Shown here in pieces: positions 1 through 24,516 of a stretch of DNA of 29,822 nucleotides; within the stretch, counting starts at the first letter, position 1; the number at the start of each line of letters is the position of its first letter. Source of the DNA: an uncultured Thermotogae bacterium (lineage in GTDB: Bacteria > Bipolaricaulota > Bipolaricaulia > UBA7950 > UBA9294); assembly GCA_964596555.1 (NCBI GenBank), contig CAZQUT010000002.1, positions 1 through 29,822 on the forward strand, written 5' to 3'. The notes under the pieces were generated by a model, which saw only the letters and a program-made list of their open reading frames with translations, did no database searches and had not been told where the DNA came from. The translations under genes were made by a program, and so were the position numbers.

Positions 1-164
1 AGATCGGTCAATGCTAGTCGCTCTTTGGCTACACCATCAGAATACAGAAGAGGAAGCAGAGTCTCCACGCCGGGAAGGCCGTAGGGGAGATCGAGGAATG
101 ATCCTTTCCACGTCTTCTGCTCGACGGTAAACGGGCAGTGATCGGTCGCTACGAGATCGAGCGT
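1..164. repeat. Exact 164-bp direct repeat, copy 1 (identical to 24891-25054)
   Basis: Base-by-base comparison: 1-164 equals 24891-25054. The first mismatches are at 165, 168, 171 and 188. Confidence 0.95.
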
Positions 165-2179: not shown

Positions 2180-2182
2180 CTC

Positions 2183-5405: not shown

Positions 5406-7255
5406 CGTCCCTCCTGGACTAGTCCGTCAAGGCCAAGCTCACGCAGCTTCTCATCGGTGGGAATACCATTCTCATCCCATCCGCGTAGCAGGTAGTACCG
5501 TTTCAACATCGCATCGAAGTCATTGATCTTGTGCATGATGGTAATCCTGCCGTGCTTAACAGGGAGGGATTCGTCAGTGAATCTGGAGGGAAGTCGATCG
5601 TCCCTTGCCGACAGGCCGAGACGCACATTGTACATCCGTTCCAGATTAATGATCCGTTCCCCAATTTGCAAGAGCTCATCTGCTTTGATCTTCCACCCAA
5701 GGGCGCTGATTCCCCATGCCAAGTCCTCAGGGTAAAGCTGATAATTCTCCACGGTGCTGAACTTGCAGACCCCTAAGGAATCAGCAATCGCACAGTACCG
5801 CTCGCTGAATTCGACAAGGTCGGGCTTATAACGCTCGTTGTCCGTATCCAACAGATCGGGCATGGTGTCTGGAAGGAGATCATTTCCCACTTGTTCGAGG
5901 TGTGCCACATCGATCGTTGGGAGGGCGTACAGATGATCAGCGCCACGGTTAGAGGTAGCATGCCCCAAGCCAAAGCCCTTGGCCACACGCGGCTCCTGGG
6001 ACGGAATCTCCAGGCCTTTCACCTGCATCGCATACCGGTACGCTTCACCCCCGATCTCCACGGCCGCACGTCGCGTCCCCTGTGCTAGAAGTGCCCCTAG
6101 GCCTTCCCGCTTTGCAATCTGGTTGATCAGAGTGACAATTGTCTCGCCGTTTCCCCACGAGAGATCCAATTCATCGCTGTGCAGCAACCCCTTCTCATGG
6201 CACTCCATGGCGAACGCTATCGCGGCACCAGTGGAGAGCGTGTCCATCCCTAGCTCGTTGCATAGGAAATTTGCGTAGATAATAACCTGCGGGTCACTGC
6301 AGTAACACTTGCCTCCAAACGCGTCGATCGTCTCGTATTCCGGTCCAGCGGTGCGACAGCGGTACTTCCCTTCATCGATCCTGGACACACGCGCACACCG
6401 AATTGGGCAGCCAAGACAGCCTTCAGTCTTCTCCTTAAAACGCTCAAGCGCCTCGGCGTTGATTCGATCGACAAACGGGACTTGCCCCAACTGCATGTTC
6501 TTCGTAGGCAGATCACCCACATCGTTCTTGATGTTAACAAGGATCGGTGTGCCCCATCTGTGGTACTCAGCCGTTGCCGGACTGGCAAGGATTTTCTTGG
6601 TAGCAGCACGAACCTGATCGAGGAATTCCTTTGGAGACAGTTGCGGTCTGTTCCGAATGACTACCACTGCCTTCAGATTCTTGGCCCCGAATACTGTCCC
6701 TCCCCCTGTCCGTGCTGCCGCTCGTCCTCCGTCGTTCATCACACTGGCAAAGAGGACACCGTTCTCTCCCGCCGGCCCGATGCTTGCCACAGCGGCATCT
6801 GGGTACTTCGCGTGCAGGAGCGCTTCTGTTTCTCCTGTGGTCTTGCCCCTCAGTTCGTCAGCAAACTCAATTCGAATACTGAGCTTGTCAATCACGAGAT
6901 ACACCGGCCTTTCCGCCTGACCTTGAATCACTACTGCATCGAAGCCACAGGCCGCCAGATATGGCCCCAGTTTCCCTCCGGCATTGGCATACCCATAGAT
7001 CCCGGTGAGAGGAGAGCGAAAGGTGAGGTGATAACGGGACGCCGCAGGCCACGGTGTTCCGGAAAAGAGGCCAGAGGAGATGATGACGGCACTCTCTTGA
7101 CTCTCAGGCTCAACCTCTTTCCCGACCAGATCGTACAAGATACTGGCAGCGTAACCTCGCCCGCCTAAGTAGGACCCTATTGCCTCTATCGGCGTGTCCA
7201 CGAGCTCAATCGCGTACGCCGATAGATCAACATAACCAGTCTTGCGCGTGTTCAT
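5396..7255 (-). CDS. aor: Aldehyde:ferredoxin oxidoreductase family protein (tungstopterin, AOR/WOR), copy 1
   Basis: YLGGRG, RSPLTG, ASIGPAGE, RTGGGTVFGAKNLKAV, CLGCPIRC, GPEYET, GMDTLS, KGLEIP, SNRGADH, DSLGVCKF. Confidence 0.93.
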   Translation of the reverse strand: MNTRKTGYVDLSAYAIELVDTPIEAIGSYLGGRGYAASILYDLVGKEVEPESQESAVIISSGLFSGTPWPAASRYHLTFRSPLTGIYGYANAGGKLGPYLAACGFDAVVIQGQAERPVYLVIDKLSIRIEFADELRGKTTGETEALLHAKYPDAAVASIGPAGENGVLFASVMNDGGRAAARTGGGTVFGAKNLKAVVVIRNRPQLSPKEFLDQVRAATKKILASPATAEYHRWGTPILVNIKNDVGDLPTKNMQLGQVPFVDRINAEALERFKEKTEGCLGCPIRCARVSRIDEGKYRCRTAGPEYETIDAFGGKCYCSDPQVIIYANFLCNELGMDTLSTGAAIAFAMECHEKGLLHSDELDLSWGNGETIVTLINQIAKREGLGALLAQGTRRAAVEIGGEAYRYAMQVKGLEIPSQEPRVAKGFGLGHATSNRGADHLYALPTIDVAHLEQVGNDLLPDTMPDLLDTDNERYKPDLVEFSERYCAIADSLGVCKFSTVENYQLYPEDLAWGISALGWKIKADELLQIGERIINLERMYNVRLGLSARDDRLPSRFTDESLPVKHGRITIMHKINDFDAMLKRYYLLRGWDENGIPTDEKLRELGLDGLVQEGRCR

Positions 7256-7256
7256 C

Positions 7257-8192
7257 TCATCTCTTCTCGCTCGTCAATTTGAACTTCTCAACCTCTGCCA
7301 GCGTAGGGAGTGAGGGCTGCGCTCCTCTGATGGTGGTGGCCAACGCACCGACCGCATTTGCCCATCGGATCGCATCCGACAGGCAGCAATCGTCCAGCGC
7401 CCATCCCAGGGCACCGTTAAACGCATCTCCAGCAGCAGTAGTATCAATCGGAGCAACGCCAAACGCAGGGAACTGACGCGTGCCATCGCGTTTAAACAAG
7501 TACGCTCCTTGGTCACCCGCCTTGCAGACTACGTGCCTCACACCGAGATCCAACAGCTTGTGCGCTGCTGCCTCTAGATCGTGTTCACCGGTCACAGCAA
7601 ACAATTCCCCCTTGTTTGGCGTCAGAAAATCAACTCGCTCAAGAAAGACGGACGAGAGGTCCTGCGCCGGAGCTGGGTCGAGGATCACCCGAGGATGTGT
7701 CGATGGTAATCGTCGCAATAGGTGATCGATCGTTTCCAGTGGAATCTCAAGCTGAAGAAGAAGCACGTCCGATCTTGCAATCGTTGGAAGCACCCGGTCT
7801 ATATAAGCGGTATCTACACGGGCATTCGCACCCGGGGTATAAGCAATGACGTTCTCACCATCCTCACTCACCCAGATGCTGGCAATCCCCGTGGACTGCC
7901 CCTCCTCTCGCTCGACCGCACTAACATCGATGCCGTTTTCCGCAAGGCTGTTCAAGAGTTCCTCCGCAAAGGGATCGACGCCGATCTTCCCATAGAAGGA
8001 GACCTGAGCCCCAAGGCGAGCTGCAGCCACAGCCTGGTTCGCCCCCTTTCCACCCGGGTAGCGGTCGAATCTATGACCGAGAACGGTCTCCCCTGGTTGA
8101 GGAAGGTGCGGGACCTCGGTGACGAGATCCATGTTGATGCTCCCCAATACACTGATCACTTGTCCAGATTCACCTCTCTTCTGTAAACTCAT
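7257..8192 (-). CDS. rbsK: Ribokinase (PfkB family)
   Basis: GSINMDLV, PGGKGANQAVAAARLG, LLQLEIP, LTPNKGE and the DTTAAGDAFNGAL signature. Confidence 0.88.
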   Translation of the reverse strand: MSLQKRGESGQVISVLGSINMDLVTEVPHLPQPGETVLGHRFDRYPGGKGANQAVAAARLGAQVSFYGKIGVDPFAEELLNSLAENGIDVSAVEREEGQSTGIASIWVSEDGENVIAYTPGANARVDTAYIDRVLPTIARSDVLLLQLEIPLETIDHLLRRLPSTHPRVILDPAPAQDLSSVFLERVDFLTPNKGELFAVTGEHDLEAAAHKLLDLGVRHVVCKAGDQGAYLFKRDGTRQFPAFGVAPIDTTAAGDAFNGALGWALDDCCLSDAIRWANAVGALATTIRGAQPSLPTLAEVEKFKLTSEKR

Positions 8193-9493
8193 GCGCTACG
8201 GATGATCGGCCCGACAATTTGCTTTCCCCGCTCTGCTGTCCATTGACTCAGTTTTGCGAAGCTCATCTTCTCAAACCCGATCACGTAACTTTCGAACTCC
8301 TGCCCGACAGGGCCCTTCCATTTATCAGGAATGCGCTCGTATCCAAGGATGGTGCCGAGAAGGCCACCAACTTGTCCGGTCGAGCAGTCTGTGTCAAATC
8401 CACACATGAGTGTAGTTGTGAGAGACTTCTCGAAATCCCCCTCTCCCAATAACAGGCCCGTGACTACAGTGGCGATGTTGGGAAAAGTGTGTATCCAGTG
8501 GTAATGGCCCAGCTCCTGCTGGATCTTTGCCAGCACGCCCTTCCAGTCTCCTATCTTGTTGCACCACCTGATAGTCCGTTCGACCACCTCGCTAAAACGA
8601 CTCTCTGGCGGAACGAACGCCAACGCCAGCCGCAGGATATCCTCGATCGACCGGTCGGAGAAGGCAATGCTGATAAGGGCGGCACAGAAGACCTCACCGT
8701 AGATCCCCTCTCGTCGATGCGAGATGATCGCATCGCGAAAGGCGAGCTCTGCGGCAAGATCGGGGCGAAACGGTGTCAGCAATCCATGTATCTCGCCGCG
8801 CATCTGTGCGCCAATCCACTCACTGCACGGATTTCGAAATCGCCCGCTCTCTGGCGGCATGATCCCTGCTTTGACGTTCTCCAATGCGCTCATCTCCGCA
8901 GTGAACGCATATGGCAGGTGCTCCACCCACTCCAGAGCTAGCTGCTCGCTAGTAAACGAAGAACCGTACTCATCAAGCACATGGAGCACAAGGATCGGGT
9001 AGGCCGTATCGTCATTCTCCACCTTAGGCGGGACGAGGTAGCTATTAACCGTCCCATAGCGGGAACGGATCATCTCACTTGTCCAGCCTTCCACCGGGTC
9101 ACCCAGTGCCGTGCCGATGCACTTCCCCACCCATCCTCCTTTTACTCGATCGAGATACTCCGAATCGGTGATCATACCGGGAATCCCTTTCGGAGGTTGA
9201 GGGAGCAAAGCAGCCATTTCGCTGAAAGTCGTGGGTCCGATGTTCTTGCCAGCTTCCAGCGCAAGGTGGATCTCCTTGTTAATACGAGAGATCCTGACAA
9301 GAAGCTTGTCCCAATTGCCATCCGTATAGCATTTCTCAGCGTGTTGGAGAAGCTTAAGGGCAGCATCCATGTTGTATCCCTGATTGATCATCGCTTGCAC
9401 AGCGGCACGCATGGGGTAGATCTTCACTCCGGAGAGGCTTGTCGTCTCCCACATGTTTGCCGCGTCCTCACGTCGCTTCTTCAATCGATCCAT
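8189..9493 (-). CDS. ADP-ribosylglycohydrolase (ARH/DraG) family protein with an N-terminal extension
   Basis: GGWVGKCIGTALGDPVEG, ENDDTAY and GFDTDCSTGQVG Mg-binding motifs. Start placed at the ATG at 9493 (GAGGT 4 nt upstream); the track start at 9544 overlaps the upstream gene. Confidence 0.85.
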   Translation of the reverse strand: MDRLKKRREDAANMWETTSLSGVKIYPMRAAVQAMINQGYNMDAALKLLQHAEKCYTDGNWDKLLVRISRINKEIHLALEAGKNIGPTTFSEMAALLPQPPKGIPGMITDSEYLDRVKGGWVGKCIGTALGDPVEGWTSEMIRSRYGTVNSYLVPPKVENDDTAYPILVLHVLDEYGSSFTSEQLALEWVEHLPYAFTAEMSALENVKAGIMPPESGRFRNPCSEWIGAQMRGEIHGLLTPFRPDLAAELAFRDAIISHRREGIYGEVFCAALISIAFSDRSIEDILRLALAFVPPESRFSEVVERTIRWCNKIGDWKGVLAKIQQELGHYHWIHTFPNIATVVTGLLLGEGDFEKSLTTTLMCGFDTDCSTGQVGGLLGTILGYERIPDKWKGPVGQEFESYVIGFEKMSFAKLSQWTAERGKQIVGPIIRSA

Positions 9494-9500
9494 GTATACC

Positions 9501-10652
9501 TCACTCATCCCGGAGTGCCTTGGCGAGAAGTTCGAGAATGTCAAGGACTTCTACTTTCGATCCTGCCTTGCTCTTGGCATCCAGAAGTCCACTCTGACAC
9601 GCCGGGCATGCACTCACCACTGTGTCCGCTCCCGTTGCTTCCGCCTCTGTAAACCGATCGAGCTCGCAATCCACGGACATTTCCTCGTAGTCATAGCGAA
9701 CAAACGCGCCGTTTCCACAGCAGAAAGAGTTATCACGGTTACGCGGCATCTCCACCAGCCTGAGCCCAGGGATCATTTCGATCAGTTCTCGCGGTGGCTC
9801 GTAAATTCCCATGTGTCTGCCAAGATTACAGGGATCATGATAGGTAACGACACGAGACAGCTTCTTCAGCTGAACAGGGTGCTTTGCGAGCTCCCCAGTA
9901 ATAAACTCAGTCAAGTGCATCGTCTTAAACGGGAGCGGCTCGCCGAGAAGCCGCGGCATCTCTTCCCTAAACGTACGCAAGCACCCGGGGCAGGCAAAGA
10001 CAACGGTCTCTATTCCAAGGCAGGAAATGGCTTCCAGATTCATCGCCGCCGTTTTTCTTGCATGATCCATCTTCCCTGCCGCGATATAGGGATGACCGCA
10101 ACATTGTTCGTTACCAAGAAGTGTGAAATCCACTCCCAGCTTTTCGAGAACCTGATAAGAACTACGGGCGATACCGCGTCTCAGGTAAGCAGTGGTGCAA
10201 CCAACAAAGAACAGGACACCTGCTTGCCTATCAATCCTTTCTCTGTTGGGAAGCCAGGCAAGTCTCTTCTCTCCGGGTTTCTTATACGGATTGCCAAACT
10301 CGTCCACCTGAGCAAGTACATCGCTGAGGCCAGAGGGCAACAAATCCCGCTCTGCCAGGTCCTCTTTCATCGCTGCGTAGATCTCAGTGAGCGGAAGATA
10401 CTTGAAGCACTGCTCTTGGCAAGCCTCACACTCGGTACAGGCAAAGATACGTTCTGCAACATCTTCGTCATACTCTATTTCCTTGTCGATCAGGGCACGC
10501 GCGATGGCAAGCTTTCCCCGCGCGCCATACGATTCAAGCCCATACGTTGCATATGGTGGACAGATCTTCTGTCCTTCCCCTTGTTCTTGATCGAAACAGA
10601 ACGCACACCGAAGACAGCTGTAGATCTGATCTCTATACTTCTCAAGCTTCAT
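9501..10652 (-). CDS. Fe-S oxidoreductase with two 4Fe-4S motifs and two CCG domains (HdrD/GlcF/GlpC-like)
   Basis: CLRCAFC, CTECEACQEQC, FFVGC, QCCG, FACPGC, YHDPCNLGR, FCCG, SACPAC. Confidence 0.9.
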   Translation of the reverse strand: MKLEKYRDQIYSCLRCAFCFDQEQGEGQKICPPYATYGLESYGARGKLAIARALIDKEIEYDEDVAERIFACTECEACQEQCFKYLPLTEIYAAMKEDLAERDLLPSGLSDVLAQVDEFGNPYKKPGEKRLAWLPNRERIDRQAGVLFFVGCTTAYLRRGIARSSYQVLEKLGVDFTLLGNEQCCGHPYIAAGKMDHARKTAAMNLEAISCLGIETVVFACPGCLRTFREEMPRLLGEPLPFKTMHLTEFITGELAKHPVQLKKLSRVVTYHDPCNLGRHMGIYEPPRELIEMIPGLRLVEMPRNRDNSFCCGNGAFVRYDYEEMSVDCELDRFTEAEATGADTVVSACPACQSGLLDAKSKAGSKVEVLDILELLAKALRDE

Positions 10653-12069
10653 GTTTCACTCCAGTGGGGAAGAGAAGGTCGGGGTTCAAGATACCGTTCG
10701 GGTCCATCGTGGTCTTGAGCGCCTTAAACAGCTCAAAAGACGTACCGAGCTTTCCCATGATGTACGGAGAAACCCCGGCACCCAAACCGCCCGGGCTCAT
10801 CCGCCCTTCCGTGAACATCAACTCGGCGATATCGCCGCGTAACTTCATCCCGTACTCCCAGGCGTCATTTCGGCGTTCATCATACAGGGTGTCGATCCAC
10901 AGGTAGGCCCCGTTGCGGGAGAAGTATGCATCAAGACCCTTGACTCGAATCCCGTATCGGGTGAAATCCGCATCGCGCTCTTCCCGTAGATTGCGGAACA
11001 GCCGAACCGCCTTCTTCAGCCCCTGAGTGGAGACAAACCCCGCTACCTCGGGGCAGAAGTACGGCCGATCACTGTAGTATGGTCCGGGCGCGGTGTTTCG
11101 CAGCCAGGAGTACATGTGCTCCTCCCAGTAGTGCCTCGTCCCCTCCGCAGAGGAAGGGCGCCCGCCGTGCGATTCGCAGATTGCAGCAGCCTCCTGAAGC
11201 CGCTCGCGTGCCCTAGTAGCACGATCACGAACGATCAGGTGGAGGAACCCGTCACCTTCCACTCCCGCCGGTTTAGGTCCACCGAACATGCCAACAATGA
11301 ACGTCGCTGCCTCGCGCATCTGAATACCATCCGCTGCATCGATTGCATCCTGATAGTCATCAAAAGCATAAAATGCAAACAGCTCCGTCTCCGGAACCGG
11401 CCGAATGCGATATGTTACCTTGGTGATAATGCCAAGGACCCCATACGACCCCATGAATAGCCCAGCAAAATCGGGCCCGTTAGCATTTCGCTCGATCGGC
11501 TCAGAATTCGGATTAGCGGCTGAGCCAGTGTTGATTACGCTTCCATCCGGAAGAACGACCTCAAGAGACAGGACATGATCGGCGGTCATCCCATACTCTG
11601 TAGCTCCATGTGGAATAGCATTGACCGCGACTGTCCCACCGATGGTGCATGAGAAGAGTCCTCCCCCACCGGGAACAGCAAGCTCCCGTCCCAGTTTATG
11701 CAAATGGTTGTCGATTCCATGCCAGATCGCCCCTGCCTGTGCAGTGACGTATCCCGCCTGCAGATCAACGCACTCTATCCGGTTCATCCTGGTTGTTTCG
11801 ATAATGATCACGCCGTCTTTAACGCCGCTTCCCAGGAAGGTTGTTCCCCGTCCCCGCGTGTAAATCGCTTTCTTGACTTTGTTCGCGAGACGGACAATCG
11901 CGGCCACCTCTTCTGTCGATCCAGGACGGACTACCGCGTCCGGAATTCCTGCTTTGTCTGGACCACAATCCCGTGAATAGCAGATCCTATCTACCATATG
12001 ATCGCTGACATACCGCTCACCAACGATCGCTACAAGTCCTTCCTTGATATTATTATCCATAACTTTCAC
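10642..12069 (-). CDS. FAD-binding oxidoreductase (VAO/PCMH fold; GlcD/alkyl-DHAP-synthase-like)
   Basis: PDAVVRP, RGRGTT, AQAG, CTIGG, LEVVLPDG, FMGSYGVLGIIT and C-terminal DPNGILNPD. Confidence 0.87.
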   Translation of the reverse strand: MKVMDNNIKEGLVAIVGERYVSDHMVDRICYSRDCGPDKAGIPDAVVRPGSTEEVAAIVRLANKVKKAIYTRGRGTTFLGSGVKDGVIIIETTRMNRIECVDLQAGYVTAQAGAIWHGIDNHLHKLGRELAVPGGGGLFSCTIGGTVAVNAIPHGATEYGMTADHVLSLEVVLPDGSVINTGSAANPNSEPIERNANGPDFAGLFMGSYGVLGIITKVTYRIRPVPETELFAFYAFDDYQDAIDAADGIQMREAATFIVGMFGGPKPAGVEGDGFLHLIVRDRATRARERLQEAAAICESHGGRPSSAEGTRHYWEEHMYSWLRNTAPGPYYSDRPYFCPEVAGFVSTQGLKKAVRLFRNLREERDADFTRYGIRVKGLDAYFSRNGAYLWIDTLYDERRNDAWEYGMKLRGDIAELMFTEGRMSPGGLGAGVSPYIMGKLGTSFELFKALKTTMDPNGILNPDLLFPTGVKHEA

Positions 12070-13405
12070 CTATCTTCTTAACCTCCCTAATAATAGCTTT
12101 CTCATCGATTGTCGTGATCGTCCGATCGCGCATGACGATGCGCCCATTAATGATTACCGTTTCAACATCGCTCCCCTTGGCACAATAGACAAGCGCAGGG
12201 ATGATATCGTCGCTCAAGTTGAACATATGCGGAGCAGAGGGATCCATGATGACAAGGTCAGCAAGCCGTCCCTCGTCAATGGTCCCCGCGTCGACTCGGC
12301 AGGCCGCAGCTCCAACTGCGGTCGCACTGGCAAAGATATCGCGCGCATCCAGGGCAGTTGGATCCATAGCTGCCACCTTCTGCAGGAGGACCCCGGTACG
12401 CATCTCCTCAAATGGGTCCAGGAGGTCATTTGATGCCGCGCCATCGGTTCCCATAGCGACATTGACACCAACCTGCCGCATCTTCGTGATTGGAGCGATC
12501 CCACTGCCAAGCTTCATGTTGCTCTTCGGGTTGTAGACCACTGTCACCGAGCGATTCTTGGCAAGCTCTATCTCCTTATCGGTAAGGTGAACGCCATGGA
12601 CGGCAAGAATCGGGCGAGAGAGAAAACCGATCGACTCCAGGTAAGAGAGAGGAGTCTTCCCCACCGTTTCCAGGGAGTGTTGCACCTCCCACTCCGTCTC
12701 CGACACATGTGTCTGAATCCCGAGGTCATATCGCTCAGCGGTCTCCATGATCCAAGTGAGCAAGCCCTCACTACAGGTAAACGGAGCGGAGGGCCCTAGG
12801 AAGACCTGCACGAGCGGATCTTCCGATGGCATCTGATGCCAGTCCTCAATAAGCTTCAGGGTCTCTTCCCGCAACCGCTCTGGCGTAGTGATCAAATCGT
12901 CGGGGACCCACTGATCGACCATACTCATCGCAGCGATCCCGCGGATGCCCATCTCGGCCCACGCTTGCGGAACTCCGGGAAGATTCATGTCCATGTCGAT
13001 GAACGTCGTGATCCCGCTTCGAATCATCTCTATCGTCCCGAGCATCGACCAGAGATAACCAATCTCACCTACGCTCCCTTCTCGCATTCGCCGCAGCACG
13101 TTACGCACAAACGGGAAGGTCACTTCCTCGCACCACGATACGAGCGGGACGTCATCCCTCCTACCCTTAAGCATCGATTGATAGAGGTGAGTGTGTGCGT
13201 TGACAAACCCGGGCGTGACGATCCGGCCTCTTCCATCGATAACGATGGTCTCCAGTGTTATCTCCTGTGATGTGACCTGACCGATCCGCACGATCCGATT
13301 CCCTTCGATCAGCACGTCCACATCGTGCTCCACACGGTGCGCGTCCCGAACGAGATGGGAGATATTCTCGATGAGGATCATCCTTTCTCTCATGTCATCC
13401 ACCAT
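12053..13405 (-). CDS. Metal-dependent amidohydrolase/deaminase (MtaD-like, 5'-deoxyadenosine/MTA/SAH deaminase family)
   Basis: PGFVNAHTH, QTHVSET, AVHGVH, NPKSNMKLGSG, GTDGAASN. The start may instead be 13393. Confidence 0.87.
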   Translation of the reverse strand: MVDDMRERMILIENISHLVRDAHRVEHDVDVLIEGNRIVRIGQVTSQEITLETIVIDGRGRIVTPGFVNAHTHLYQSMLKGRRDDVPLVSWCEEVTFPFVRNVLRRMREGSVGEIGYLWSMLGTIEMIRSGITTFIDMDMNLPGVPQAWAEMGIRGIAAMSMVDQWVPDDLITTPERLREETLKLIEDWHQMPSEDPLVQVFLGPSAPFTCSEGLLTWIMETAERYDLGIQTHVSETEWEVQHSLETVGKTPLSYLESIGFLSRPILAVHGVHLTDKEIELAKNRSVTVVYNPKSNMKLGSGIAPITKMRQVGVNVAMGTDGAASNDLLDPFEEMRTGVLLQKVAAMDPTALDARDIFASATAVGAAACRVDAGTIDEGRLADLVIMDPSAPHMFNLSDDIIPALVYCAKGSDVETVIINGRIVMRDRTITTIDEKAIIREVKKIGESYG

Positions 13406-14384
13406 TGCAATCCCTTCCTTCTAGAAGATCGACCAAGCACTTCACGTCCACCTTCCCAGCACGGCTTACGCGCCCGCTGGAGAGGTGATTGATCGTGATC
13501 TGCGCCGGTTTGTTGATGTCATTCAGATTAGGGATCTTCTCGAAGACCCCACCCGCTTCCCGCAACACATCGCAGAACAGGCGCCCGTAAATCGAAGCGG
13601 ATTCAAATGAGAGCCGGTGCGCAAGCTCATCCAAGCCGTCATCCGGAAAGCCGTCAACAGTAAGGAGCGCAGCGCCAGCGTAGTGAATGAAGTCATCGGG
13701 GTAGGGACGATTCTCTGTGGGAGATGCGCCTCCGTTCACCGGGCACACAAGCGCTCGCCCGATCATGTGTTTGACGATATGGGGATCGACGTCCAGGCTC
13801 TCTTTCATAGTGAAGATGACGCTCTCATTCACTCGTCCCGCGATCTGCGTCGCGCCAACCACACTTGCGATCGGTGCGGCGATCAGGGTCAACATCTGCG
13901 GCAGAACGCCGCTCTTCTCAGCAAGATGGAGCGCAACCGCATCATCGGGGAGACAATCGGTTTCAATGACGGCAATCCCGATCGCATCCTTCGCGGGCAA
14001 GTCTCCATCCAAACACAGACGGATAGGACCGGAAACGCGAATCCCCGGCTTATCCGCGCTCAATGGATAGGAGGTTTGCAGTCCGTATGTTGAGAGGAGA
14101 GGATGAAACGACTCGACAGTAATCTGTGGGAGGATGAATCCCCCAAGATCGGTGAGGTCAAGCGAGACGTTGGCCAGCCCTCCATGGCAGATCTCAATCA
14201 ACAGGCGCCCTGCCTCGAATGACCCAACTACGCCAAATCCAGCGTCGATCAACGTCGCTTTGCAGGGGAGTGTCTGTACAGAGAGGCCGTATTCCCATGC
14301 GTGGTCAATCAGAATGCGCGTGAGCTCGCCCGATCGGCGGGCAATATGCGCTTGCATTCTTGAATCGAGGCTTGGACTATTCAT
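13395..14384 (-). CDS. mch: Methenyl-tetrahydromethanopterin cyclohydrolase-like protein (divergent)
   Basis: Co-linear motifs matching Mch: LIDAG, GSFEAG, EICHGGLANV, SGP.R, ETDCLP, APIASVVGATQIAGRVNE, IYGRLF, SSGRVSRAGKV. Confidence 0.82.
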   Translation of the reverse strand: MNSPSLDSRMQAHIARRSGELTRILIDHAWEYGLSVQTLPCKATLIDAGFGVVGSFEAGRLLIEICHGGLANVSLDLTDLGGFILPQITVESFHPLLSTYGLQTSYPLSADKPGIRVSGPIRLCLDGDLPAKDAIGIAVIETDCLPDDAVALHLAEKSGVLPQMLTLIAAPIASVVGATQIAGRVNESVIFTMKESLDVDPHIVKHMIGRALVCPVNGGASPTENRPYPDDFIHYAGAALLTVDGFPDDGLDELAHRLSFESASIYGRLFCDVLREAGGVFEKIPNLNDINKPAQITINHLSSGRVSRAGKVDVKCLVDLLEGRDCNGG

Positions 14385-14389
14385 ATTCT

Positions 14390-15298
14390 CTACCGTTCAC
14401 CGACCACATCAGGAAGGTAAAGCTGATGCTTTCCCCACTTCCCTCCGAATGAAGGGGCGGTGATGCGTATTGTCCCTGGAGTTGCAGCAAAGGCATCAAT
14501 CGCCGTGCGCAATCCCTCTTTGATCTCGGCAAGCCCTACTCCGATGAGCGGGTACTCGATCACCGCATCCGCGTTATCCGGGATTTTCGTTTCAACTTCG
14601 TTGCGCAGCCCGGGGCAGAACGGCTCGTTGATCGTCAAGCCTTCGTCGCGATAATTGATGCCGCCTACCTTCGCTCCGCTGATTCCACCGAGTGGATAGT
14701 TGAAGAGAGAGACACCGTAGACATCGTTGAAGATGCGATCCGATGCCTCCTGTGCCGCGATAAGACATGAAGCCGCATTCTGAGCGAAGACCTCAAGCAC
14801 GCCGTCCATACCGTTGATGATGTGGAACTGCCGCTCGATCATGATGTCTCCCGTCATGATCGGAAGGCGTATCACATCGCGCCCGCCAAGTTTCTCCTCC
14901 CGCTCGAATCCATCGCCCCATCTTCTCACATGTTCGCCAATGGCGATCATCTCCCCATCTCTTCCCTGCAGGCTTGCATCGAAAAGCGAGCAAGTGGGAA
15001 GGTGTGGCAGGATGTACAAGCGATCGAGCAAGGCTTTGCGGAATGCATCCATCCCCAACTCTGTAGGAGCGTTGAACTGAATGAGAACGCCGGGGCGGGC
15101 ATCCGGAGATTCCGTCGGGGAGACGCGTCCCTCCACGCATGCTTGCAGCGGCGCAGAAGTGATCACGGAAAAGCCGGATAAATAAGTGGCTTCTTGCAGC
15201 GCTACTCTCTCTGTCAGGGCAGTAAGCAACACACGGCAGAGATAGACATCCGTACATTCACAGTTCACTTCTTCCAGTTCGATATTCTTGTACAGCAA
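14390..15298 (-). CDS. ftr: Formylmethanofuran:tetrahydromethanopterin formyltransferase-like protein (divergent)
   Basis: RVLLTA, GFSVI, SPDARPG, LLDR, PTCSLFDA, WGDGF, LPIMTGDI, SGAKVGG, FCPGL, VIEY, FGGKWG, all in Ftr order. SD AAAGGAG upstream. Confidence 0.85.
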   Translation of the reverse strand: MLYKNIELEEVNCECTDVYLCRVLLTALTERVALQEATYLSGFSVITSAPLQACVEGRVSPTESPDARPGVLIQFNAPTELGMDAFRKALLDRLYILPHLPTCSLFDASLQGRDGEMIAIGEHVRRWGDGFEREEKLGGRDVIRLPIMTGDIMIERQFHIINGMDGVLEVFAQNAASCLIAAQEASDRIFNDVYGVSLFNYPLGGISGAKVGGINYRDEGLTINEPFCPGLRNEVETKIPDNADAVIEYPLIGVGLAEIKEGLRTAIDAFAATPGTIRITAPSFGGKWGKHQLYLPDVVGER

Positions 15299-15319
15299 TG
15301 TTTCTCCTTTTCTTGTCTT

Positions 15320-16327
15320 CTAGATCATTCTTCCGTACGCATGAAGGGCGTCACGCCTGAGAGAGAGCACGACGCGGTTGCTCGGTGCAAAAGCACGTAT
15401 TGGCGTTCCATCGAGAATTAGGGCTGCATCCGCTTCGAGGCCCACAATCTCCACGCTGTCACCATCACCAAAGCTGATCTGCCGGAGAGTGACCGGTTCG
15501 ATGGCTTCGATATCCTTCTGAACGATATGCGTTCGAATCAAGACGGCACTTGCCACAGTGAGGACTCCCTCTTTGCCTAGGTATGGTCCCCAACACATCA
15601 ACCCACTCACAGCCTTTCCACTGTAGGGAACTGGATCATTGATCGGCGAGGCAACGATCTGCCCCATCTGCGTGTCCATACTGCTAACCATTAGTAGCTC
15701 ATTCTTGTAGATTCGCGTTTTCTCCCCACAAACTGAGTGCGGCTGAGCTTCCCTCTTCGTTCCAGTGAGCATCGCACGGGCGTCTAGATCAAGGCGCACC
15801 CCATCTCTCGTTCCAAAGAAGGTATTGCTGAAAGTGACGTCGTTGAATGCAATCCCTATGTGTTCACCATTCACCCGCACATCAATTCCGTGAATCGGAC
15901 GAGCCGCGAGGCAAGACAGATCGAGCCGTTCCAAATCCCTCCCACGTATCGTTACAAGCGGTCCCACGTTGGACGACCCAGCACCGACTCCCAGGAGGCG
16001 TACCTTCGCTCCACTAGCTACTATTGTGTTTGCGACTGCGCATAGGGTCCCATCCCCACCAACGCCAATCAGCGTATCAACTTTCCTCGCAAGCATCGCC
16101 TTCGCCGCGCGTTCAATGAACGCAAAATCGGAGGTCACGGGAACATCCATTTGGATAAAGTCCTGTCCTTTTTCTTGGGCAATGGATGCACCAACTGTCC
16201 CGGACACGATCAATAGGGAGGCGATCTCAACGCGAGAGAAGAGAATGGGAAGCAGCTCCCGCATCGCTGTCTCTCCCCGTCCAGCAGCAGGATGGACAAT
16301 CAAACCGGCACGCACGATGTGGTTCAC
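15320..16327 (-). CDS. NAD-kinase / diacylglycerol-kinase superfamily protein (ATP-NAD kinase/AcoX-like)
   Basis: IVHPAAGRG, GVGGDGT, GSSNVG and AFNDV (NE/ND motif). Start placed at the GTG at 16327 (GTGA overlap, GGAGGGG SD). Confidence 0.75.
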   Translation of the reverse strand: MNHIVRAGLIVHPAAGRGETAMRELLPILFSRVEIASLLIVSGTVGASIAQEKGQDFIQMDVPVTSDFAFIERAAKAMLARKVDTLIGVGGDGTLCAVANTIVASGAKVRLLGVGAGSSNVGPLVTIRGRDLERLDLSCLAARPIHGIDVRVNGEHIGIAFNDVTFSNTFFGTRDGVRLDLDARAMLTGTKREAQPHSVCGEKTRIYKNELLMVSSMDTQMGQIVASPINDPVPYSGKAVSGLMCWGPYLGKEGVLTVASAVLIRTHIVQKDIEAIEPVTLRQISFGDGDSVEIVGLEADAALILDGTPIRAFAPSNRVVLSLRRDALHAYGRMI

Positions 16328-17151
16328 TTGATCGCCCCTCCCGTAAGACCGGAGACAAGGTATTTCTGGCCCAGCATGAACAGGATCAGGACAGGGATAC
16401 ATGCCAGCAACGCTGCTGCGCTCAATGGCCCCCACCGAACTACCCCGCCTGAACCCATGAACCGCGCCAGGAATACGGGAAGAGTGTAGTGAGCGTTATC
16501 ACGCATAATGACTAATGCAAAGAAAAACTCGTTCCACGATAGAAGCAATGAGAATGTCCCCACTGCCAGGAGCCCAGGAACGGAAAGAGGAAGAACGATC
16601 TTGACGAGCGATCTCAGCCGGCCACACCCGTCAATGCGAGCAGCTTCTTCTAAGGCAACCGGGATCTTGTCGAAGTAACCCTTAAGCAACCAGATGCCGA
16701 AGGGCATGCTGAAACTGGTGTACATAATCACAAGGCCAGGGATCGTATTCAACAAATGGTAGGTCTTCAATACGGTGAAGAGTCCCAGAACCATGATGAT
16801 CCCAGGGAAGGACTGGGTGGCAAGGAGCCACACGGAGAATATGGTTCGCCCACGAAACCTGAACCGCGATAGAGCATATCCGGCCGGCGTAGAAACGATG
16901 ATCGACAAGAGCACGGTCGCCAGGGCAACGATGCTGCTATTCTTGAAGTTCGTTATAAAGGTCGACTCGGTAAAGATCTCCTGGTAGTTGACAAACGTCA
17001 CTTCCCTTGGAACCTCCATTGGGGAAGCGATAATTTCTTGCTCTGTTTTGAACGAGTTAAACAGGAGAAAGACCATCGGAAAGGCAAGGAGGAGCATGAA
17101 CAGGACGACAAACACGTGCAACAGCACCTGTTTTACTGGGGACATCCTCAT
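16324..17151 (-). CDS. Carbohydrate-family (CUT1) ABC transporter permease, MalG-like
   Basis: NSFKT, FKNS, GYALSRFRFRGR, EAA loop LEEAARIDGC, SWNEFFFAL. Start placed at the ATG at 17151 (ATGA overlap). Confidence 0.93.
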   Translation of the reverse strand: MRMSPVKQVLLHVFVVLFMLLLAFPMVFLLFNSFKTEQEIIASPMEVPREVTFVNYQEIFTESTFITNFKNSSIVALATVLLSIIVSTPAGYALSRFRFRGRTIFSVWLLATQSFPGIIMVLGLFTVLKTYHLLNTIPGLVIMYTSFSMPFGIWLLKGYFDKIPVALEEAARIDGCGRLRSLVKIVLPLSVPGLLAVGTFSLLLSWNEFFFALVIMRDNAHYTLPVFLARFMGSGGVVRWGPLSAAALLACIPVLILFMLGQKYLVSGLTGGAIK

Positions 17152-18026
17152 CTTAGTACCTCCCGAATGTAAAAGACGATCACGACAAGAAGGCACAACA
17201 GAATAAGTAGACCGATCGCGGCTCCATAGCCCGCTTGATAGTACATGAATGCGTTTTCGTAGGCGTACAGGGGAAGAGTGAGAGACGCATTCCCCGGGCC
17301 CCCTTTTGTCAAAATGAACACGATGTCGAACATGTTGAATGTCCAAATCGTCTCCAGAGTAAAGATTATCAGTACAACTTTCTTGATGCTCGGGACGATG
17401 ATGTTAACCTGAGTCTGAATATAGCTCGCCCCGTCGATTGCTGCAGCATCGACGATATCTTTATTGATCGTCTGCAGCCCGGCAAGAAGCATTACAGTGA
17501 CAAATGGAATCCCCATCCAAATATTGGTGATGATGCATGTCCAGAGAGCAAGCTGCGGATCAGTGAGCCAATTGGGCGGATGGGCCATGCCCAAAGAATG
17601 GAGGACAGTATTCAGTGGCCCGCCGTTAAGAAAGATGTAGCGCCACATTAGTGAGACAACAACCGGAGGCAGGGCCCAAGGAACGAGAGCTATTCCGCGG
17701 AACATCCTTCGGAAACGCAGGAAGCGGGAATTAAGCATTGTGGCCAGCCAATAGGAAAGGACAAACTGCATCCCAACGCTGGTTATCGTCCAGACAAGGC
17801 TGTTACTGAATGCACGCAGGAAAAGGGGATCCTGAAACAGAAGTCCCACATTTTGGAAGCCGACAAACACGGTCTCTCGTGCGAGAGCACGGTAAGTGTA
17901 GAACATCCGCGTAATTCCCTGTATCAATGGATACAGGCTGACACCACAGAGAACAACTAACGCTGGAATGAGAAAGGGAATGGCTCGGCGCTCTTCGTTG
18001 AATGCTCCGCGATTGCTGTGCATCAT
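17148..18026 (-). CDS. Carbohydrate-family (CUT1) ABC transporter permease, MalF-like
   Basis: FVGFQN, PWALPPVV, W.GIPF, EAA loop DAAAIDGAS, TKGGPGNAS. Confidence 0.93.
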   Translation of the reverse strand: MMHSNRGAFNEERRAIPFLIPALVVLCGVSLYPLIQGITRMFYTYRALARETVFVGFQNVGLLFQDPLFLRAFSNSLVWTITSVGMQFVLSYWLATMLNSRFLRFRRMFRGIALVPWALPPVVVSLMWRYIFLNGGPLNTVLHSLGMAHPPNWLTDPQLALWTCIITNIWMGIPFVTVMLLAGLQTINKDIVDAAAIDGASYIQTQVNIIVPSIKKVVLIIFTLETIWTFNMFDIVFILTKGGPGNASLTLPLYAYENAFMYYQAGYGAAIGLLILLCLLVVIVFYIREVLR

Positions 18027-19054
18027 TGACCAAGCCCTTCAGCAAACTCTATCACAATCTTCAATCCTTTAGCTTCCTTGGCAAGTTGCAGTGCTTTCTC
18101 TAGCTCGGAAAAGGGGAAAGTATGTGTGATGATGCCCGGGAAATCTTGTGCATGATCGTTCAACCAGTTGACGGCTTCTCCAAACTGGCGCAGGTTGTAG
18201 CCGAAACTGCCCACAAGGGAGATCTCGCGGTAGTGTACCGCAAATGCATCGATACATACTCGATCACCCTTCGGTAATCCTCCGAATAGAAGAACCCGTC
18301 CAGCGGGCGCTGCCATATCAAAAGCCGTTTCTACTGGTGCCTTGCTTCCGACGGCGACTAGGATGCGATCAGCTTTGTCCCTGCCCCACTCGGCGGTCAT
18401 CCGCTCGCTGAGGTCCTCTTCCTGTGGTGAGATAACAGCCAGGCCGAGGTGGCGCGCCGCTTCAATCCGTGAAACGGAGATCTCGCTCAGTAGAACCTGT
18501 GCGCCTTTCGTTCTTGCCAACAGGGCAAGCATCACTCCCATCGGCCCGCCACCGATGACAAGGACGGTATCACCGTTACTGATGTCCGCCTTCTCGATCC
18601 CATTATGAACACAGGCAAGTGGTTCAGCTAGCGATCCGACGGAGAAATCGACCTCCGCTCCCAAGCGGAAGGTCCCCTGTTCCACGATCGCTCGTGGAAG
18701 AAGGATGAACTCCTGAAACGCGCCCGTAACAAATGACTTGTGTTCGCACATCTCCCCAAAATCGTGCTGGCAGAGATCGCACACTCCACACTCAACATAC
18801 GGAGCAGCAACGACTCGCTCTCCTACCTTGAATCGGTCAACTTCTGGCCCCACTTCCACTATGGTCCCAGTAAACTCATGTCCAAGTATGCAAGGAGGGG
18901 TGAAGTACGGGTGTCCCTTGAAGTAAGCCTTAACGTCGGTTCCACACAGTCCGACGGCTTGTGTCTTCAGCACTATCTCTCCAGGACCGGCGTGCGGCGT
19001 GGGAATCTCCCGATAACCGATCTTCCCAATCTCGACAAGCTCAGCGATCTTCAT
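18023..19054 (-). CDS. Zn-dependent alcohol/polyol dehydrogenase (MDR, sorbitol/threonine dehydrogenase-like)
   Basis: GLCGTD, LGHE, structural Zn motif CGVCDLC...C, AEPLAC, Rossmann motif IGGGPMG. Confidence 0.92.
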   Translation of the reverse strand: MKIAELVEIGKIGYREIPTPHAGPGEIVLKTQAVGLCGTDVKAYFKGHPYFTPPCILGHEFTGTIVEVGPEVDRFKVGERVVAAPYVECGVCDLCQHDFGEMCEHKSFVTGAFQEFILLPRAIVEQGTFRLGAEVDFSVGSLAEPLACVHNGIEKADISNGDTVLVIGGGPMGVMLALLARTKGAQVLLSEISVSRIEAARHLGLAVISPQEEDLSERMTAEWGRDKADRILVAVGSKAPVETAFDMAAPAGRVLLFGGLPKGDRVCIDAFAVHYREISLVGSFGYNLRQFGEAVNWLNDHAQDFPGIITHTFPFSELEKALQLAKEAKGLKIVIEFAEGLGQ

Positions 19055-19080
19055 CTTTGATGTCCTTCTGATCGTCTCTC

Positions 19081-19107
19081 AAGAAAGAAGGGGGGCTCTC
19101 GCCCCCC
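19081..19107 (-). terminator. Intrinsic terminator inside the operon
   Basis: Minus strand GGGGGGC-GAGA-GCCCCCC-TTCTTTCTT: a 7-bp GC stem, GNRA tetraloop and U-rich tail, just downstream of the stop at 19116. Confidence 0.75.
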
Positions 19108-19115
19108 ATAAAAAT

Positions 19116-19631
19116 CTAGTACTCGACCCGGATCTCGACGACGTACCAGTTCCACTGGTTCTCGTCGTAGAGCTCTATGGTCTCTGGATCGGAGTTGTAC
19201 GGGAAGGCAAGCTTCACCGGTCCACCCACGCTTGCTGGGAGGTCATCACCATCGAGAGTGGTAACCAAAAGGACCGGATAGTAGAGGGCATCCCTGATTG
19301 CAACGGGGACTTCCTTATCATCCGAAGCGATCGTCACGGCAGTGCTAGCACCGGCGGGAATCCCCACGTAGTCGAGAACCGCCTTCAGCGTCACACCACC
19401 GTAGGCCTGTTCTCCCATCCACGGATCCTCCACTACAAAGGCAACGTAGGGAAGTGCCTTCAGCATGTCGATATCAAACTCGAACACGTCACCATTATTG
19501 GTCAGCGCGATCGCTCCCGATACCGTAAATACAACCTCTCCAGCAGGTACGGGGACTTCTTTCCCCCACACACTCACGGCCATGAGTGTAATCACCAGTA
19601 CGCATAGCAACACCTTAGAAACATTTTTCAT
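19116..19631 (-). CDS. Exported protein with an oxidoreductase molybdopterin-binding-like (sulfite oxidase/MsrP-type) fold
   Basis: Signal peptide MKNVSKVLLCVLVITLMAVSVWG, then FTVSGAI, DPW, GVTLKAVL, ASDD, LDG, GGPVKLAFP, WNWYV. Strong SD GGGAGG. Fold call made by motif resemblance. Confidence 0.68.
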   Translation of the reverse strand: MKNVSKVLLCVLVITLMAVSVWGKEVPVPAGEVVFTVSGAIALTNNGDVFEFDIDMLKALPYVAFVVEDPWMGEQAYGGVTLKAVLDYVGIPAGASTAVTIASDDKEVPVAIRDALYYPVLLVTTLDGDDLPASVGGPVKLAFPYNSDPETIELYDENQWNWYVVEIRVEY

Positions 19632-19736
19632 AATCTATCCTCCCTTGTCTGTCTTTTGCTTCGTTTGGATCTATCTTGTTCTTATACTTATGCTCATGCT
19701 TATAATTATCACCTCCATAAATCGCAGATTACCCCC

Positions 19737-20999
19737 CTATTGCAGGCCCATCCTCTTTAGGAACATGTTCCCCTGCGTCGTTGCATTGTTGAGAGCTGTA
19801 TCAAGGTCTCTTTTTCCCAAGACAACGAGTTCTAACTGCGGCAGGAATGATTGCCACTCCCACGAGAAGAATGCAAACATGTGCGGCTTCACGTCCCGAG
19901 CGTAGGGCAGCCACTGATACGCGACGTTCCACTGCCCTCCTTCTGTTTGAAATTCTGGCCGATCGATGGCGCTCTGTCTGACCGGGAAGAGCCAGTCAGC
20001 ATAGGCAATCCGGGCTGAATTCTCCACATTGGTGAAGAACTTCACGAACTCGGCCGCCTCATCTTTGTGTGGAGAGTCAATGTATATGCCCAACGATTGC
20101 GGATCAGATTCGGTGACCGTCCTTTCATCTCCCTTAACCTGCAGCATCCCCCAATCGAGTTTCCCCTTTGTCAGTCGCTCGATCCAGCTTCGTACCCAGC
20201 AACCGTAGCTGAACATCGCATACTTACCAGTTCTAAACCCTTGCAGCAGGCTCATGAAGTCATAACTCAAGATATCCTGCGGCATCGTCTTATCTACCGT
20301 TACTAGATCGGTGAAACTCTTGATCGCCTGCCTAGCGTTATCGTCAATGTCTACGTGCCACGTCCCATCGTCATACTGCTGGAGCACGTGTCCATTGTTC
20401 TCATCCACCAGACACCACCACAGACGCTGCTCGAGCGGGGCGAGTAGCCCCCACGTGGTGACCTCGCCGGTCTCATCCCTCTTGGTCAGTAGCTGCGCGT
20501 AGCCACGGAGTTCGTCCCAGGTGATCATCCCATCTTCAGGTAGAACGATCCCCGCGTCGGTGAACAGGGCCTTGTTGTAGAAGATGACCAGTGTCTCTTG
20601 CAAAAGGGGCATCCCATAGATAGCGCCGTTATCATCGCTAACCCCATCCCATATCGATGAGGAGATATCGGCCAGTGTGTCATCGCTCAGGTAATCGTTG
20701 AGCGGAGCAGCGTAGCCGAGCATCCCATACTCATAGCACATTACTGAATCCTCATGGAAGATGTCCGGGGCTTGCCCACCCTGAAAACTAGTCAACAGAT
20801 AGTCGTCCAGGTTCTCCCAGCCTTGCCAATTGATCTCGACCTGAATGTCCGGATTAGCCTCATTCCACTCCGCGACGATAGCCTTGATCTCCTTCACCGT
20901 ATCTCCCTGCCAGGCAGGGCAGACAAACATGAGGTCGGCGGCCGATCCGAGAACCCCAAGCATCGAGACCATCAGAGCCAGCAACATAACTCGTTTCAT
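19737..20999 (-). CDS. Carbohydrate-family ABC transporter substrate-binding protein (Sec signal peptide, no lipobox)
   Basis: Signal peptide MKRVMLL, WNEANPDIQV, GQAPDIF, YGMP, FYNKALF, TWDEL, FRTGKYAM. SD AAGGAGG supports a start at 20999 or 21002. Confidence 0.93.
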   Translation of the reverse strand: MKRVMLLALMVSMLGVLGSAADLMFVCPAWQGDTVKEIKAIVAEWNEANPDIQVEINWQGWENLDDYLLTSFQGGQAPDIFHEDSVMCYEYGMLGYAAPLNDYLSDDTLADISSSIWDGVSDDNGAIYGMPLLQETLVIFYNKALFTDAGIVLPEDGMITWDELRGYAQLLTKRDETGEVTTWGLLAPLEQRLWWCLVDENNGHVLQQYDDGTWHVDIDDNARQAIKSFTDLVTVDKTMPQDILSYDFMSLLQGFRTGKYAMFSYGCWVRSWIERLTKGKLDWGMLQVKGDERTVTESDPQSLGIYIDSPHKDEAAEFVKFFTNVENSARIAYADWLFPVRQSAIDRPEFQTEGGQWNVAYQWLPYARDVKPHMFAFFSWEWQSFLPQLELVVLGKRDLDTALNNATTQGNMFLKRMGLQ

Positions 21000-21035
21000 C
21001 ATTCCTCCTTTCATGCTCTTACACCCTCCCTTTTG

Positions 21036-22700: not shown

Positions 22701-22710
22701 AGGTACCTCC

Positions 22711-24455: not shown

Positions 24456-24459
24456 AATG

Positions 24460-24482
24460 GGAAATCGTTTTCCGAAATCGTT
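24460..24482. promoter_or_regulatory. LacI-type operator (GGAAATCGTTTTCC, 24460-24473) plus an adjacent repeat GAAATCGTT (24474-24482)
   Basis: CG-centred near-palindrome with 6 of 7 pairs matching, resembling LacI-family operators. It sits between the -10 box and the regulator start codon. Confidence 0.65.
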
Positions 24483-24487
24483 ACACC

Positions 24488-24516
24488 ACCATAACACAAC
24501 TCTTGGAGGATGTCAA
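24488..24516 (-). promoter_or_regulatory. Sigma70-type promoter of the operon
   Basis: Minus strand TTGACA (24516-24511), 17-bp spacer ending in TGT (extended -10), TATGGT (24493-24488). Confidence 0.75.

Follow-up and report, generated by a model that had tools for sequence, protein, structure and literature searches.

The window analyzed in this study is one entire contig (CAZQUT010000002.1, 29,822 nucleotides) of a 1.27-Mb metagenome-assembled genome (MAG), 74.6% complete, from an uncultured Thermotogae bacterium of the GTDB phylum Bipolaricaulota. It encodes a homolog of methenyltetrahydromethanopterin cyclohydrolase (Mch) within an operon of about 20 genes. Motif analysis and phylogenetic analysis both set this Mch-like gene apart from the verified Mch enzymes. 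Sequence comparison, structure modeling and operon context tentatively suggest that it is a catalytically competent member of a distinct Mch-family clade, working in catabolism on a non-canonical substrate. The gene and its active-site motifs are as follows.

13395..14384, minus strand: Mch-like cyclohydrolase, 329 aa, alternative start Met10 (PF02289, TIGR03120, 1QLM, AF2 model)
14064..14078, minus strand: QTSYP, residues 103-107, aligned with QKAGW of 1QLM with a one-residue gap
13824..13838, minus strand: GRVNE, residues 183-187, aligned to ARVVE of 1QLM, with Arg184 and Glu187 kept
13680..13700, minus strand: PDDFIHY, residues 229-235, standing where canonical Mch has (R)TNDxxxY

A separate clade within the Mch family

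The Pfam MCH model (PF02289) matched the open reading frame (ORF) at 173 bits over profile positions 4-307 of 311, which identifies a full-length homolog, and HMMER alignment of the protein with Methanopyrus kandleri Mch (1QLM) gave an E value of 3e-39. The AlphaFold2 (AF2) model was confident over its full length (pLDDT 91.2, pTM 0.91) and matched the solved Mch structures 1QLM, 4FIO and 4GVQ with template modeling (TM) scores of 0.82-0.87 at 25-32% identity (0.83/0.87 for 1QLM alone), and no fold other than Mch was matched in the fold search with this model. The ESM Atlas entry for the protein begins at residue 10, and the Atlas returned generic Mch clusters only. On the NCBIfam Mch equivalog model TIGR03120 the protein scored 157.8 bits, below the cut-off of 228.8.

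An earlier note, made from the letters of this DNA, had claimed that the homolog keeps the catalytic Arg/Glu pair and has lost the QKAGW motif. The first claim was borne out by the alignment of GRVNE with ARVVE of 1QLM, in which Arg184 and Glu187 align to Arg183 and Glu186 (M. kandleri / Archaeoglobus fulgidus numbering), the catalytic residues of Mch. The second held in part: QTSYP does align at the QKAGW position, but another conserved motif has replaced the canonical one rather than nothing at all, and its Gln103 is invariant. The label "pterin-binding motif" that was given to QKAGW is provisional. In the A. fulgidus Mch structure of Upadhyay et al. (2012), segment 93-95 reportedly builds, together with Arg183 and Glu186, the catalytic site around a water and the formyl oxygen. 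The altered GRTND motif was confirmed, with RPYPDD (residues 226-231) at that position in the 1QLM alignment. Sharing of these substitutions with verified Mch enzymes, which the earlier note had named as evidence against its own claim, was not observed in the solved enzymes 1QLM, 4FIO and 4GVQ, all three of which retain both QKAGW and TND. The stretch after SGPxR was also found to be shorter than in 1QLM, by 8 residues, as had been noticed before, but this is confined to the sub-branch of the gene and is not a trait of the clade (post-SGP segment of 54 residues; medians of 60 in the clade and 62 in canonical Mch).

The canonical active-site pattern, Q-[KYML]-A-G-W and (R)TND, is thus absent from the Mch-like protein, which has QTSYP and PYPDD instead and shows every element of the clade signature, namely GR-x-NE, DD-x-x-HY and no Trp after the conserved Gln. 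The motif DD..HY was found in 51/51 clade members and 0/93 canonical sequences, and GR.NE in 47 of the 51 and in a single canonical sequence. Conversely, Q..GW was present in 64/93 canonical sequences and ND in 72/93, and neither occurred in any clade member (0/51 for both). Arg184 and Glu187 are kept in 49 of the 51 clade members. They belong to 25 positions that are invariant in the clade and canonical Mch alike, which also include Q103, S118-G119-P120 and D231. Residues invariant in the clade specifically include G183, N186, D230, H234, P285 and N291; D230 occupies the site of an Asn that is seen in a fraction of 0.89 of canonical Mch sequences, while D231 is common to both groups.

In a survey of 1.84 billion representative proteins, the Mch family comprised 415 representatives at 50% identity, and the family scan showed a score gap beyond the top 13 proteins. 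A FastTree phylogeny of 144 rows placed the Mch-like gene in a 38-row clade with support of 100 and a stem of 0.63, and an IQ-TREE phylogeny of 71 rows (LG+C20+F+G4) split off 22 clade representatives by a branch with SH-aLRT of 100. The trees are unrooted, and in both of them the gene was placed apart from verified Mch enzymes. Because the motif changes are conserved across the whole clade, they are more than chance and are the signature of a separate clade. The nearest named relative of the protein is from a Bipolaricaulota MAG (83% identity). Other small Mch lineages without AGW, and with P-DD but no His-Tyr, were observed between the clade and canonical Mch (tree rows P0059, P0073, P0139, P0066, P0087, P0061, P0107, P0124, P0105, P0069, P0080, P0092 and P0052).

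The ratio of nonsynonymous to synonymous substitution rates (dN/dS) of the Mch-like gene against two relatives was 0.20 and 0.14, and the gene is therefore under purifying selection. The values for the neighboring formyltransferase-like (0.05-0.08) and deaminase (0.08-0.12) genes described below were lower. A decayed gene was rejected because of dN/dS together with the clade-wide conservation. As a separate observation, the fastest-evolving genes of the operon are consistently the Mch-like gene and a kinase gene with an NADK/DAGK fold (dN/dS 0.14-0.25 vs 0.05-0.12).

The ORF is the sole PF02289/Mch-family match in the host genome. Among the relatives sampled, the Mch-like gene was found in 1/10 genomes of the same genus, 6/24 of the same family and 0/16 more distant ones, and it is an accessory, patchily distributed gene. 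The metagenome runs that contain the window are from salt-lake, brine, marine and marine-sediment samples.

Operon context and C1 partner genes

Pfam and NCBIfam scans, signal peptides and synteny delimited an operon on the minus strand, whose extent and main products, other than the Mch-like protein, are listed here.

3..24497, minus strand: LacI-headed operon of about 20 same-strand genes
14390..15298, minus strand: Ftr-like formyltransferase, 302 aa (PF01913 and PF02741, about 77 bits each)
12053..13405, minus strand: cog0402-type amidohydrolase (the deaminase), 450 aa (PF01979 at 225 bits)
10642-12069, minus strand: GlcD-like FAD oxidase, resembling 2-hydroxyacid dehydrogenases in the N-terminal FAD domain only (residues about 13-255)
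19116-19631, minus strand: small exported Oxidored_molyb-fold protein, 171 aa, with a signal peptide and a weak Oxidored_molyb match of 31 bits

The first part of the operon encodes, in order, a LacI regulator, a DhnA-type aldolase, an exported metallophosphoesterase, a CUT1 binding protein, the small exported Oxidored_molyb-fold protein, a zinc-dependent alcohol dehydrogenase (Zn-ADH) and two permeases. The NADK/DAGK-fold kinase, the Ftr-like protein, the Mch-like protein, the deaminase, and the FAD oxidase with a CCG Fe-S subunit follow. The operon ends with an ARH-family glycohydrolase, a ribokinase, two AOR tungsten/molybdenum enzymes, an SsnA-like amidohydrolase, a PreA-like flavo-Fe-S reductase and a dihydropyrimidinase-like protein. 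This operon, with the kinase, Ftr-like and Mch-like genes in that order, was seen again in MAGs that carry the labels Bipolaricaulota, Neomarinimicrobiota, Thermotogae, Planctomycetota and Clostridiaceae, and its synteny is kept in loci L003-L016.

The stop codon of the Ftr-like gene lies 5 nt ahead of the Mch-like start. The Ftr-like protein aligned over its whole length with 1M5S (E 3e-41) and scored 171.8 bits on TIGR03119, below the cut-off of 292.6. Its gene is directly upstream of the Mch-like gene in 12 loci, and always so in this operon type. On the other side, the deaminase start overlaps the Mch-like stop by 11 nt. The NCBIfam models nearest to the deaminase (methylthioadenosine/S-adenosylhomocysteine/5'-deoxyadenosine and 8-oxoguanine deaminase types) were all below their cut-offs, and its PDB matches were 3LNP, 4F0R and 7WW2. 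A cog0402 deaminase homolog was found in all 16 of the assessable clade loci, directly adjacent to the Mch-like gene in 10 of them.

Among the remaining products, the LacI regulator is closest to RbsR, CytR and PurR, the aldolase is a DhnA-type class I enzyme closest to ADH synthase, and the ribokinase is bona fide (311 bits vs a cut-off of 299.65). In sequence searches of the PDB, the CUT1 binding protein matched generic CUT1 sugar binders, the ARH-like protein matched MJ1187 only, and the kinase had no match. Across loci, identity ranged from 41 to 65% for the Mch-like protein, from 51 to 83% for the Ftr-like protein and from 72 to 91% for the FAD oxidase; the C-terminal substrate domain of this oxidase is without a close solved relative, yet the oxidase is the most conserved operon protein across phyla. 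The small exported protein was found beside the binding protein in all loci of the operon type, at 49-94% identity, and may be an extracellular ligand-binding accessory.

Two observations concern the gene models and the assembly. The longest-ORF starts of the second permease (16324-17346) and the kinase (15320-16435) overlap the upstream genes by about 200 nt and about 110 nt, respectively, and the true starts are probably further downstream because the N-terminal residues are atypical of their families. Two dihydropyrimidinase-like paralogs share an identical 164-bp tract (1-164 and 24891-25054), after which identity falls to about 60%; since the tract abuts the contig edge, the identity may come just as well from a contig break caused by the repeat, or from an assembly join, as from recent gene conversion.

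Partner genes of one-carbon (C1) metabolism were searched for in the host genome and in four further carrier genomes that are 90-92% complete, with positive controls detected for all models except PF09176. Beta-RFAP synthase (TIGR00144) for tetrahydromethanopterin (H4MPT) synthesis, MfnB (PF04476) for methanofuran synthesis, Fae (PF08714) and F420-dependent Mtd (PF01993) were not found in these five carrier genomes. The N-terminal domain of MtdA/B, Mpt_N (PF09176), was not found in them either, in a search without a positive control. A canonical methylotroph cluster, P0045 (Mpt_N, ATP-grasp, FhcA, FhcD, FhcC, Mch), has an Mch with 36% identity that falls outside the clade. Ordinary Mch was rejected as a candidate, as the equivalog score, the active-site segment, TND, tree placement and pathway context all differ from those that define it. 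The Mch-like gene probably serves catabolism and not H4MPT-linked C1 energy metabolism.

The setting of the gene was in all cases an operon for import and breakdown, and more distant clade members were found in other clusters of this kind. Locus L017 contains thiamine pyrophosphate-dependent E1 subunits, an Ftr-like gene, a Bmp-type ABC importer, a DAO-type flavoprotein and a second Mch. Locus L018 contains E1/E2, an Mpt_N-domain protein, an M19 peptidase, an ECF importer and an Ftr-like gene, and locus L019 a Bmp importer, a second Mch and a carbamate kinase. Locus L022 contains a Pterin_bind protein, two Amidohydro_2 genes, a second Mch, a DAO-type flavoprotein, and ECF (RibU-like) and Bmp importers. 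The second Mch paralogs stand beside the clade member at these positions.

L022:14054-15016: second Mch paralog
L017:13705-14664: second Mch paralog
L019:7246-8214: second Mch paralog

The second Mch of L022 scored 292.5 bits on TIGR03120, above the equivalog cut-off, which implies that even cut-off-passing Mch annotations in bacterial import-and-breakdown clusters may not mean C1 metabolism. The Pterin_bind protein of L022 resembles methyltetrahydrofolate:corrinoid methyltransferase (226.7 bits, below the model cut-off of 259); its gene (L022:9172-9984) is directly upstream of the clade Mch, with no corrinoid protein in view. The Mpt_N-domain protein of L018 (L018:3552-4460) is methylene-H4MPT dehydrogenase-like.

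Candidate substrates and alternative explanations

In Mch, the Arg/Glu pair activates the attacking water. By analogy, a water activated by Arg184 and Glu187 would attack, without a metal as in Mch, the methine carbon of a cationic N-CH=N ring in an imported compound, and the product would be an N-formyl compound. The Ftr-like enzyme would then pass the formyl group on to water or to some acceptor that is not methanofuran, and the deaminase would alter an adjoining aminopyrimidine ring.

The candidate for this ring that is favored here, with reservations, is the N5,N10-methenyl bridge of a methanopterin-type tetrahydropterin from archaea, probably modified at its head or tail. The phosphodiester of such a cofactor could be cleaved by the exported phosphoesterase, and its alpha-ribosyl unit could be released and recovered by the ARH-type hydrolase and the ribokinase. 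The deoxyribitol chain could be processed by the kinase, the Zn-ADH and the DhnA-type aldolase to yield dihydroxyacetone phosphate and an aryl-acetaldehyde, the latter of which the AORs could oxidize, and the pyrimidine ring of the pterin could be degraded by the deaminase, the PreA-like reductase and the dihydropyrimidinases. H4MPT is bound by both of the enzymes that appear to have been co-opted, Mch and Ftr. A pterin-type substrate is favored because the sister operons add Pterin_bind, Mpt_N and near-canonical Mch proteins, because a protein with the molybdopterin-binding Oxidored_molyb fold is exported beside the binding protein, and because the sugar and polyol genes match an alpha-ribosyl-phosphate, a deoxyribitol and a hydroxy-acid tail; the polyol branch is further supported by the similarity of the DhnA-type aldolase to ADH synthase. 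A broader and more doubtful proposal is that the operon gives fermentative or acetogenic bacteria a dedicated route for taking up and breaking down methanopterin-type coenzymes released by methanogens, anaerobic methanotrophic (ANME) archaea or haloarchaea, with the Mch-like/Ftr-like pair processing the C1-bridged pterin head.

Several points weigh against a methanopterin-type substrate. Plain methenyl-H4MPT should have preserved QKAGW and TND, to judge from the bacterial methylotroph Mch of P0045, which keeps both at similar divergence, and the remodelled site thus suggests a different or modified head group. This site, along with the near-canonical paralogs of the sister operons, is the chief objection to plain methenyl-H4MPT. 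There is a risk of over-fitting when so many genes are assigned to the numerous bonds of methanopterin. For both the LacI regulator and the deaminase, the closest relatives are of the ribose or nucleoside type, and the sister operons have Bmp-type (nucleoside- or riboflavin-type) importers. Near-canonical Mch paralogs coexist with the clade member in sister operons, and the clade may therefore catalyze a different step. The FAD oxidase matches 2-hydroxyacid dehydrogenases in its FAD domain alone. Finally, the Mch-like protein is the least conserved of the operon, with 41-46% identity where the Ftr-like protein has 51-61% and the FAD oxidase 72-74%.

The main rival explanation, which is somewhat less probable, is that a purine-type ring is opened. 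An imported purine nucleoside would be attacked in its imidazole ring, at C8, or at C2; the substrate would most plausibly be a cationic N-alkylated purine such as 7-methylguanosine, or the attack would follow deamination by the neighboring enzyme. The Ftr-like enzyme would deformylate the resulting formamidopyrimidine or formamido-imidazole, the PreA-like reductase and the dihydropyrimidinases would degrade the remnant, and the ARH-like enzyme and the ribokinase would recover the ribose. Consistent with this are the similarity of the deaminase to adenosine-analog and 8-oxoguanine deaminases and of the regulator to RbsR, CytR and PurR, the bona fide ribokinase, the Bmp-family binding proteins and carbamate kinase of the sister operons, and the SsnA-like, PreA-like and hydantoinase-type genes, which are typical of anaerobic purine/pyrimidine breakdown; the remodelled pocket would also suit a ring fused differently from that of methenyl-H4MPT. 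However, purine breakdown provides no role for the extra kinase, the Zn-ADH, the DhnA-type aldolase, the two AORs, the FAD/CCG oxidase and the exported Oxidored_molyb-fold protein, nor for the Pterin_bind and Mpt_N proteins of the sister operons, and the importers are of the CUT1, Bmp or ECF type rather than classical nucleoside permeases. It is also established that neutral purine imidazole rings are normally opened by metal-dependent GTP cyclohydrolases, whereas Mch is metal-free and acts on an amidinium cation.

Less likely again is another N-CH=N compound or cyclic amidine, such as a benzimidazole or alpha-ribazole-type base, a folate-type methenyl-pterin or a diazepine nucleoside. In a variant of this explanation the amidine carbon would be substituted, the product would not be a formamide, and the role of the Ftr-like protein would be unrelated. 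The diversity of the importers in the sister operons (CUT1, Bmp, and ECF with RibU-like or YkoE-like parts) suggests a family of related substrates, the Ftr-like gene is not visible in some sister loci, and alpha-ribosyl bonds are established targets of ARH-family enzymes. On the other hand, in this operon type the Mch-like gene is always preceded directly by the Ftr-like gene, which speaks for a formyl product, and neither a peptidase for the glutamate tail of folate nor corrinoid-related genes were found among the genes of the window. Flavin and F420 were rejected as substrates, as their ring amidine carbon bears no hydrogen and would yield no formyl product for the Ftr-like enzyme.

It is very improbable that the gene encodes an ordinary methenyl-H4MPT cyclohydrolase from a divergent lineage, with a function in H4MPT-linked C1 metabolism or in the detoxification of formaldehyde. 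Automated annotation does give relatives this name, the protein has the Pfam domain, the fold and the catalytic pair, and Ftr is the usual pathway neighbor. These features are set against the TIGR03120 score, the separate clade, the changed active-site segment and TND, the lack of RFAP synthase, MfnB, Fae, Mtd and Mpt_N matches in the five carrier genomes, the LacI-controlled operon with sugar-type import, and the patchy accessory distribution. Equally hard to credit is a non-catalytic remnant, a binding or scaffold subunit without cyclohydrolase activity: the protein shows the lowest conservation in the operon (41-46% identity vs 51-74% for its neighbors) and its dN/dS exceeds that of the Ftr-like and deaminase genes, but R184 and E187 are kept in nearly the whole clade, N186, D230 and H234 are newly invariant, the dN/dS of 0.14-0.20 indicates purifying selection, and the AF2 model is confident over the full length.

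The earlier note had concluded that the protein is an active cyclohydrolase whose substrate is another cyclic amidine or another C1 carrier. The general part of that conclusion is well supported by the fold, the catalytic pair, selection, the clade motifs and the genomic context, and for the substrate itself the methanopterin-type compound is a proposal.

Mch and Ftr are used as marker genes of methanogenesis, methanotrophy and methylotrophy in metagenome surveys. The clade indicates that Mch and Ftr matches in bacterial MAGs can be mislabelled, which can inflate inferred C1 metabolism; some relatives are already annotated as methenyltetrahydromethanopterin cyclohydrolase. Full-text literature searches found no paper on Mch or Ftr homologs outside C1 metabolism. 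If characterized, the clade would define a new reaction for the small Mch family and would open an undescribed anaerobic pathway of about 20 genes for the breakdown of a ribosylated N-heterocycle. If the compound is an archaeal cofactor, the pathway would bear on the recycling of carbon and nitrogen between archaea and bacteria in anoxic sediments, and if such coenzymes are indeed dismantled, a catabolic route for an archaeal C1 coenzyme would be described for the first time, as would a role of Mch and Ftr beyond C1 energy metabolism.

Comparison with known cyclohydrolase systems

Compared with Mch itself (EC 3.5.4.27; PDB 1QLM, 4FIO, 4GVQ/4GVR/4GVS), the Mch-like protein shares the full-length fold, the catalytic Arg/Glu, the SGP loop, the Gln of QKAGW and the Asp of TND, and has an Ftr homolog as its neighbor. 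It differs in the clade pattern Q-x-S/G-x without Trp, in PDD for TND, and in the invariant Asn186 and His234; it also belongs to a separate clade, its TIGR03120 score is under the equivalog cut-off, and its gene is part of a catabolic operon. The second paralogs of L017, L019 and L022 resemble the clade in their genomic setting: in anaerobes, they stand next to amidohydrolases of the cog0402 type, flavoprotein amine oxidases and importers of the vitamin or nucleoside type. Unlike the clade, they retain the Trp (Q-[LF]-S-[GA]-W), carry RVN[TS] and fall in the canonical half of the tree.

The formyltransferase/hydrolase route of methylotrophs (Mch with FhcABCD; 6S6Y) likewise combines Mch with an Ftr-type subunit and takes a methenyl group to formyl and off the carrier. 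In contrast to that route, FhcA, FhcB, FhcC, MtdA/B and H4MPT biosynthesis genes are not present here, and the match of the Ftr-like protein to FhcD (6S6Y_D) reached an E value of 1e-23 only.

The pairing of PurH or PurO (IMP cyclohydrolase with AICAR transformylase) and that of archaeal GTP cyclohydrolase III with the formamide hydrolase ArfB offer a functional analogy only, from established knowledge. In both, a cyclohydrolase for a purine N-CH=N unit is paired with an enzyme that moves or removes a formyl group. These enzymes have unrelated folds without detected sequence similarity, and they are biosynthetic and act on nucleotides, but the pairing of a cyclohydrolase with a formyl-handling enzyme would be the same logic as that proposed for the Mch-like/Ftr-like pair. 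In conclusion, these comparisons suggest that the Mch-like protein would best be filed as a new functional variant within the Mch family.

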